A model generated the notes under the pieces. The model saw only the letters and a program-made list of their open reading frames with translations, ran no database searches and was not told the DNA's origin. The position numbers and the translations under genes were made by a program. Shown here in pieces: positions 10,799 through 12,528 of a stretch of DNA of 64,000 nucleotides. Numbering within the stretch: the stretch's first letter is position 1; every line of letters begins with the position of its first letter. Origin of the DNA: an uncultured Flavobacterium sp. (lineage in GTDB: Bacteria; Bacteroidota; Bacteroidia; Flavobacteriales; Flavobacteriaceae); NCBI GenBank assembly GCA_964593435.1, contig CAZQGY010000005.1:92-64091 (forward strand), written 5' to 3'.

Positions 10799-12528
10799 AT
10801 GGAACAATTTATAGTATCGGCCAGAAAGTACAGACCTCAAACATTTAAAGATGTGATTGGGCAACTTGCTATTACCAATACTTTGTTGCATGCAATTGAA
10901 AACAACCATTTAGCTCAAGCATTACTTTTTACAGGACCTCGAGGTGTTGGAAAAACAACTTGTGCCAGAATATTAGCCAGAAAAATCAATCAAGAAGGAT
11001 ACGATGATCCAAATGAAGATTTCTCTTTCAATGTATTTGAATTAGATGCTGCTTCTAATAATGGTGTTGATGATATTAGAAGTATTATCGACCAAGTAAG
11101 AATACCTCCACAAACAGGTAAATATAAAGTGTACATTATTGATGAGGTACACATGCTTTCCGCTTCGGCATTTAATGCGTTTTTAAAAACATTAGAAGAA
11201 CCACCAAAGCACGCTATTTTTATTTTAGCCACAACCGAAAAGCACAAAATTCTTCCTACTATTTTGTCGCGTTGTCAAATATTCGATTTTAAACGAATTA
11301 CGATAAACGACACCAAAGAATACTTAATGGAAATTGCTCAAAATCAAAATGTGCAGTTTGAAGAAGAAGCTTTACGTATCATTTCGCAAAAAGCTGATGG
11401 TGCCATGCGTGATGCCTTGTCTATATTTGACAGAGTGGTTTCATATTGCGGAAATAATTTAACACGCCAAGCTGTTGCAGAAAACTTAAACGTATTAGAT
11501 TACGATTATTATATAAAAGTTACCGATTTAATTTTAGAAAACAATATTCCTCAATTACTTTTAACTTACAACGATATTTTATCGAAAGGATTTGACGGAC
11601 ACCACTTTGTTGCTGGGTTAGCTTCACACTTTAGAGATTTATTGGTTTGTAAAAATCCAGCAACACTTTCGTTGTTAGAAGTTAGCGAACAAACACAACA
11701 AGAATTTGCTGTTCAGGCACAAAAAGCTTCTCAAGAGTTTTTATTAGATGGAATTTCTATTGCTAATGAATGTGATTTAAAATATAAAGTGAGTCAAAAT
11801 CAACGATTGTTTGTCGAACTTACGCTTATGCAATTGGCTTCATTAACACATGATGCCGAAAAAAAAAAGCTAAATACTATATAATACCTTCAACTTTCTT
11901 TGATTCAACTCAAAAAAGTCAATCTCCACAAATATCAATTCAACCACAAGTTGTTTCAGTACCTGAAATAAAAGCAGTTCCTCAGGAAGAAATTCCAAAT
12001 GTGGAAGTAAAAGTTGAAGCGAAAATTGAACAAATACAACAAAAACTTACACCTACAATAGATACCAGTAATCGAATTTCTTCTTTATCTATTAAAGGAT
12101 TAAAACAAAAAGCAGATGTTTCTAATTTAGCAAAATCAGAAACTTTATCTGTAGGCGAACATTTAGCCGATCCATTCACACAGGAAGATGCCATAAAACA
12201 TTGGAATGATTTTATAGAGATTTTAGAAACTAAAGGAAAAAAGTTATTCGCAAGTTATATGCGATTAAGCAAACCTGTATTAATGGGCACCAATATATTG
12301 TTAGAATTTCCAAATCAGGGTTCTAAAGAAGATTTTGAAAATACAAATTCTGAATTAGTGAGTTACCTAAAAACAAATTTACGCAATTACGATTTGAAAA
12401 TTAAAATAACGGTAATTGAAACCTACAAACCTAAAGTAATTTATACCAACGAAGAAAAATACAAACATTTTAAGGAGTTAAATCCTAACATAGAAATATT
12501 TAGACAAACTTTCGAATTAGACTTATAA
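10799..12528 (+). CDS. dnaX: DNA polymerase III gamma/tau. The 0 frame gives 361 aa (stop 11882-11884); a -1 shift or extra A at the A10 run gives 576 aa
   Basis: SARKYRPQTF, GPRGVGKTT, DEVHM and SRC motifs. A10 run at 11859-11868. The -1 frame is open from 11869 (AKYYIIPS...) through the 12001-12528 ORF, which resembles a Bacteroidota tau C-terminus. Confidence 0.88.

Follow-up and report, generated by a model that had tools for sequence, protein, structure and literature searches.

A two-ORF dnaX gene in an uncultured Flavobacterium, with tau probably produced through transcriptional slippage on an A10 run

Results

Layout of the dnaX locus

The window, the whole 64,000-nt stretch of DNA from an uncultured Flavobacterium that was analysed here, carries a dnaX gene divided between two reading frames (Table 1). 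At the run of ten As the zero frame, read from the sequence, is GAT GCC GAA AAA AAA AAG CTA AAT ACT ATA TAA, and the open stretch of the -1 frame extends over 11854-12528. By conceptual translation, one A added to the run gives a 576-aa, 65.6-kDa tau with the junction peptide EKKKAKYYIIP, and one A removed gives ...EKKS followed directly by TAA, 357 aa in total. The first-pass annotation, which was made from the letters of this DNA, had arrived at the same figures for the zero frame, the A10 run and the -1 frame (361 aa, 219 codons, 576 aa, and AGC TAA on loss of an A), and all of them are correct by sequence. Its reading of gamma as the default product, with tau requiring recoding at A10, agrees both with these frames and with the conservation reported below.

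Table 1. Features of the dnaX locus, numbered from the first letter of the window
Feature	Position	Strand	Details
Likely dnaX promoter	10752..10782	+	-33-like TTTG (10752-10755), 19 nt, -7-like TATATTTG (10775-10782); 17 nt before ATG
dnaX zero-frame ORF (gamma-like product, clamp-loader domains I-III)	10799..11884	+	361 aa, 40.9 kDa
A10 slippage run (proposed)	11859..11868	+	exactly ten bases; context GCC-G-A10-G
A_AAA_AAG heptamer in zero-frame phase, candidate -1 ribosomal shift site	11863..11869	+	from sequence
tau-specific segment, -1 frame	11869..12528	+	219 codons + stop: YIIP motif, variable linker, C-terminal domain
+1-frame TAA stop	11871..11873	+	would terminate translation (357 aa, ...EKKS) when the mRNA has lost one A or gained two
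YIIP motif of the tau-specific segment	11878-11889	+	
Zero-frame (gamma) TAA stop	11882..11884	+	4 codons past the last codon of the run
Folded C-terminal alpha/beta domain of tau (predicted)	12169..12525	+	pLDDT 75-91
Acyl-CoA carboxyltransferase gene	12532..14160	+	Carboxyl_trans (Pfam PF01039); start 3 nt past the tau stop

The close spacing of the downstream carboxyltransferase gene had also been pointed out, and it holds (12532 against 12528). This gene is a neighbour that lies outside the dnaX recoding unit; the surroundings of dnaX differ in F. johnsoniae, where the carboxyltransferase neighbourhood is not conserved. Upstream of the gene, the motif pair at 10752-10782 is likely, from its sequence, to be the dnaX promoter. 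Bacteroidetes promoters have the consensus TTTG/TAnnTTTG, and an identical TATATTTG is found 20 nt before the dnaX ATG of F. johnsoniae, whose RNA contigs begin there at this ATG or slightly past it.

Identity of the two halves

The gamma ORF matches the Pfam families DNA_pol3_delta2, DNAX_ATPase_lid and DNA_pol3_gamma3, and spans positions 1-370 of the 614 in NCBIfam NF011531 ('DNA polymerase III subunit gamma/tau') with 615 bits. The -1-frame part spans positions 414-613 of the same model; a Pfam search with this tau-specific part returned no family, and it was NCBIfam that placed it. The product obtained by adding one A forms a single uninterrupted alignment, over residues 1-576, with a natural single-ORF DnaX (fused, 587 aa), and it is 60-63% identical to DnaX of four congeners and 40-47% identical to that of two other Flavobacteriales families. 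Its tau-specific part consists of three sections: a conserved FIIPP motif at the junction, in which I6 and P7 are invariant across 34 sequences, an indel-rich linker, and a conserved domain of ~120 aa.

When the predicted structure of this C-terminal domain was used in a fold search, the best match was chain 4tps_D, from the SirA-DnaA domain I complex (E 4.5e-4), DciA scored more weakly, and E. coli tau (5fku_E, 2aya) was matched weakly at E 0.2-0.5. Given the weak match to E. coli tau, we do not take the fold search to prove, at the structural level, a domain V that binds the polymerase, and the identification as dnaX therefore rests on sequence homology rather than on fold. A search of the genome for a second dnaX copy able to supply tau found none: the second-best AAA+ match is MgsA/RarA and the third is a weak partial match (E 2.8e-4).

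Conservation of the split in Flavobacterium and its relatives

An A10 run is not in itself a rarity in this 31% GC genome, which has 24 A/T runs of length 10, and the reality of the feature thus rests on its conservation and on independent assemblies. The first-pass annotation had proposed comparing the run and its frame among Flavobacterium orthologues, and there 23 of the 24 congeners sampled share the G-A10-G context and the -1 frame for tau, the remaining one (G010) having A12 and tau in the +1 frame. Among 78 further Flavobacterium loci, 69 have A10 with tau in the -1 frame, seven retain A10 and read as a single ORF thanks to a base (C, G or A, depending on the lineage) inserted behind the run, and two have A11 in frame and a fused ORF. 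A survey of 401 genomes of the genus gave a similar picture, with about 139 split genes among the 150 rows listed, complete one-contig genomes included.

The layout of the frames around the run is likewise constrained. In each of 102 Flavobacterium loci exactly one frame reads into tau, and in 100 of these the other two frames stop within nine codons; counted from the GAA codon, the +1-frame stop is at most nine codons away in 100 of the 102 and the zero-frame stop 4-8 codons away in 92.

The two-ORF structure could in principle be an assembly or sequencing artefact concealing a genomic A11 and a single ORF, a concern that the first-pass annotation had raised itself. Homopolymers are prone to indel errors, and an A11 with a fused ORF does exist at the two loci mentioned above. 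Against this reading, contigs from three unrelated metagenome studies (of fish, wastewater and mosquito) span positions 11650-12100 of the window with A10, no gaps and no differences; more than 90 species, complete genomes and four DNA runs of F. johnsoniae (below) have A10 as well. On these contig data we therefore regard an artefact as next to impossible, and the dnaX split is real.

The same comparison bears on whether the two ORFs encode separate proteins, gamma and a free C-terminal protein initiated at its own start. A candidate is at hand in the 175-aa ORF that begins at GTG 12001 in the ORF listing, and independent translation of 12001-12528 had been named beforehand as an outcome that would overturn recoding. 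Conservation of the tau frame, however, begins 5-7 residues past the run, at the invariant I-P of FIIPP and far upstream of 12001, which argues against initiation at that GTG. The Pro codons of FIIPP change only at synonymous third positions (CCA, CCG, CCT, CCC), the linker has no conserved start codon, and fused orthologues are collinear over the junction. Separate proteins are accordingly very improbable.

In other Flavobacteriales families the first A of the run can fall on codon position 1, 2 or 3, the length of the run ranges from 10 to 12, and tau occupies either the -1 or the +1 frame. Single-ORF dnaX genes from these families also keep a run in frame, A10 in L032 (genome G031) and A9 in L030 (genome G034). 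In L032 each of the two other frames reaches a stop within 3-4 codons, a Thermus-like layout in which slippage would yield gamma.

The genus has moved several times between states in which tau is in frame and states in which tau would need slippage, keeping the run each time. Retention of A10 whichever frame encodes tau is what would be expected if roughly half of the output changes frame at this site, and an efficiency of slippage or frame change near one half at dnaX was anticipated in the Atkins 2016 review.

Run length in RNA and DNA of F. johnsoniae

For the comparison of RNA with DNA we turned to F. johnsoniae, taking as reference the congener genome (G265) that carries the junction published for this species. 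The comparison was made on assembled contigs of public runs (Logan's contigs), each of which shows the path that the assembler chose and gives no A10:A11 ratio. The four DNA runs (X69, X70, X71 and X73) have A10 and are gap-free over 3 kb. Ten of the 12 RNA-seq runs, from three studies, contain one extra A exactly at the dnaX run, at contig depths of up to about 330: A11 was found in pure-culture runs X51, X52 and X53 of one study and in synthetic-community runs X54-X60 of two studies, A10 in a further run of the pure-culture study (X49) and in a synthetic-community run (X50). The difference between RNA and DNA gives a one-sided Fisher p = 66/8008 = 0.008, for runs that share studies and are not fully independent. 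The A10 run X49 comes from the same sample as the A11 runs X52 and X53, and finding both lengths in a single sample is consistent with a mixture of RNAs in proportions near one half. In the RNA of this species A11 seems no less abundant than A10.

Within 20 kb around F. johnsoniae dnaX there are eight A8/T8 runs, and the RNA contigs show no such insertion at any of them; a single low-depth contig, from one run, lacks one base at another position of this region, which may or may not lie in a homopolymer run. In a second 20-kb region, two RNA runs out of four show one or two additional As at an intergenic A11 (L153:14383-14393; G265:C1, about 5,250,383), and a T10 inside a 384-aa ORF (L153:16574-16583; about 5,252,574) has one additional T in the sole RNA contig that spans it. 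An A10 run at L153:4115 keeps its DNA-like length in all three RNA contigs, so that slippage is not uniform among runs. Changes of run length in F. johnsoniae RNA are therefore general at runs of 10 or more, and non-uniform.

The length changes occur only in RNA libraries, only at runs of 10 or more, and only as insertions. According to the Atkins 2016 review, an insertion-biased change of length at long runs is a known signature of slippage by bacterial RNA polymerase. A library artefact is not expected, because the DNA libraries passed through the same contig-assembly pipeline; slippage by reverse transcriptase is still, in formal terms, an alternative source of the extra A. For the species of the window itself there are few contigs from runs that were labelled or guessed as RNA, with uncertain RNA content; all have A10, and they are uninformative on minority forms.

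Discussion

We propose, with a probability of roughly 0.8, that this two-ORF dnaX is expressed through slippage of RNA polymerase on the A10/T10 tract, which would generate mRNA mixed in run length, with tau made from the A11 transcripts. Standard translation of A10 transcripts would yield gamma, comprising domains I-III (361 aa), and that of A11 transcripts the 576-aa tau with its ...EKKKAKYYIIP junction; a transcript whose run is shortened by one A or lengthened by two would give a 357-aa variant of gamma. Tau would add the variable linker and the C-terminal domain, whose expected role, from homology to full-length DnaX, is to tether polymerase and helicase. We infer that the slippage seen in F. 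johnsoniae also takes place in this uncultured species and that both proteins accumulate.

In E. coli, dnaX uses -1 programmed ribosomal frameshifting on A_AAA_AAG, with a Shine-Dalgarno element before the heptamer and a stem-loop after it as stimulators. A similar shift, with the products reversed, might be the main route to tau here. Flavobacterium has the heptamer in the right phase, only UUU genes were found for tRNA-Lys (in a 91%-complete genome), GGAG precedes the run in most congeners, and the Atkins 2016 review describes the reversed cases as ribosomal frameshifting. The stimulatory elements are another matter. The first-pass annotation saw no clear Shine-Dalgarno sequence upstream and no hairpin downstream, and the wider comparison bears this out: RNAalifold, run on 99 distinct Flavobacterium junctions with 90 nt on either side, returned a consensus without base pairs, and the best downstream fold in the window is -4.6 kcal/mol. 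No Shine-Dalgarno-like element was found about 10 nt upstream; directly before the run the clade of the window has GCCG and lacks GGAG, and the GGAG of most congeners corresponds to Gly-Glu codons only 3 nt from the heptamer. F. johnsoniae, moreover, is reported to make rare use of Shine-Dalgarno pairing and to be poor at frameshifting on prfB.

Two further observations weigh against ribosomal frameshifting as the main route. A -1 shift would not serve G010, with its A12 and tau in the +1 frame, nor the families in which the run starts at codon position 1 or 3; the phase and length of the run and the direction of the shift vary among lineages, which a fixed -1 heptamer cannot explain and phase-blind transcriptional slippage can. 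In addition, the extra A is already present in F. johnsoniae RNA. We consider a predominantly ribosomal mechanism improbable, and the suspicion of the first-pass annotation that transcriptional slippage is the likelier route is strengthened by the A11 RNA contigs together with the lack of a conserved hairpin or a usable Shine-Dalgarno element. Since the heptamer is in phase and the only tRNA-Lys found is UUU, a -1 ribosomal shift could still add to tau, giving the same protein and junction peptide, and it may contribute alongside slippage.

Slippage could alternatively occur in the DNA, if slipped-strand mispairing gave some cells of the population an A11 in place of A10 and these cells supplied tau. 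Long homopolymers mutate often, and A10, A11 and A12 alleles all exist among the species. Yet every DNA contig has A10, the change of length is confined to RNA libraries, and dnaX is single-copy in the genome. Tau is essential in the bacteria in which it has been studied, so that a heritable off state would be lethal. Phase variation is for these reasons highly unlikely, and slippage during transcription remains our preferred explanation.

The two-ORF dnaX arrangement is already known and was published for Flavobacterium in 2013. Antonov, Coakley, Atkins, Baranov and Borodovsky (2013, NAR 41:6514, PMC3711429) described it as a GeneTack cluster in which poly-A recoding gives tau. In their Supplementary Figure S3, F. 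johnsoniae and F. psychrophilum stand beside Chlorobium, Cytophaga, Capnocytophaga, Coraliomargarita, aligned to the A9 site of Thermus. They proposed transcriptional realignment, in a paper that contains no dnaX experiment, and the 2016 review by Atkins repeats the point. The suspicion in the first-pass annotation that comparable cases had been published was thus well founded. The window dnaX shares with the published cases the gene, the genus, the G-A10-G site and the -1 relation, and comes from another Flavobacterium species. It has the traits of the class, in that ORF1 covers domains I-III and ends after the poly-A run, ORF2 encodes the tau part in another frame, and the site and frame are conserved. 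As the layout has been known computationally for this genus since 2013, the window adds no new kind of recoding.

A search of the literature turned up no experiments of later date on Flavobacterium dnaX, and the RNA-level support reported here, the extra A seen in assembled contigs of a sister species, appears to be new. What we add is the comparison of F. johnsoniae RNA and DNA contigs, the survey of about 100 loci and 401 genomes, and the repeated restorations of frame that keep A10.

The closest studied parallel is dnaX of Thermus thermophilus, in which transcriptional slippage takes place at an A9 run (Larsen et al. 2000, as described in PMC5009743 and PMC3711429). The Thermus and Flavobacterium genes have in common a run of nine or more As at the domain III/IV boundary with close stops in both frames that do not encode tau, and, as we propose for Flavobacterium, an mRNA pool mixed in run length from which both products arise by standard translation. 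In Thermus tau is encoded by the template and gamma comes from slipped transcripts, whereas here the roles are reversed; in roughly 10% of Flavobacterium species an insertion of 1 nt downstream restores the Thermus-like layout. The gene of E. coli resembles that of Flavobacterium in the same in-phase heptamer, at an equivalent position in the gene, and in two products that share domains I-III. It differs in that its products are the other way round, in its Shine-Dalgarno element at working distance and its stem-loop, neither of which is conserved in Flavobacterium, and in that the change in Flavobacterium is already present in the RNA (of F. johnsoniae).

If our proposal is correct, an essential replisome subunit is made only from mRNA that differs from its gene, which would be a clear case of programmed non-linear decoding. 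The arrangement is also a trap for annotation, with gene callers giving a truncated dnaX and a 'hypothetical protein'.

A more speculative idea, which we think improbable, is that A10 is maintained because it allows the tau:gamma ratio to be tuned, and is not merely a tolerated frameshift. It is suggested by the persistence of A10 whether tau is encoded by the template or by slippage, by the apparent abundance of A11 relative to A10 in F. johnsoniae RNA, and by other splits at domain boundaries that need one more A in an A10 run, in a gene for a TlpA-like lipoprotein in this genome and in one for a small secreted protein in F. johnsoniae. Should this be true, and should slippage respond to nucleotide pools or growth rate, such runs would amount to a regulon-like device that sets the ratios of protein isoforms, the composition of the replisome included.

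Other candidate split genes at A10 runs

Outside the window but in the same genome, a lipoprotein gene (C18 44696-45852; L157) ends in ...AAAPEKKK at a G-A10-G run (C18:45426-45435), and a 141-aa TlpA/thioredoxin-like domain with a WCGPC motif follows in the -1 frame, whose open stretch begins precisely there; as in dnaX, one more A is needed to join the two. Orthologues in five congeners, among those listed, are fused ORFs of 380-393 aa. In eight species (L159-L165 and L167; genomes G011, G004, G013, G015, G005, G001, G012 and G008) the lipoprotein-thioredoxin orthologues have a conserved in-frame TGA at about position 1495-1500, in the context ..AA[AC] TGA AG[AG].. and at the same domain boundary, with a lipoprotein part of 253-262 aa upstream and a thioredoxin domain of 134 aa downstream in one frame. 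Across the genus this boundary is thus uninterrupted, marked by UGA, or crossed by an A10 frameshift, and on sequence grounds the gene is a candidate for readthrough or slippage that would give two isoforms.

A further gene in the F. johnsoniae reference, at L151:13355-14091 (G265:C1, about 2,820,355-2,821,091), may be another slippage-dependent split gene, as its sequence suggests: a G-A10-G run at L151:13746-13755 joins a 137-aa frame ending in EEKKKKIQ to a 115-aa -1 frame (RKKKEDPIILPADGFVLRG...).
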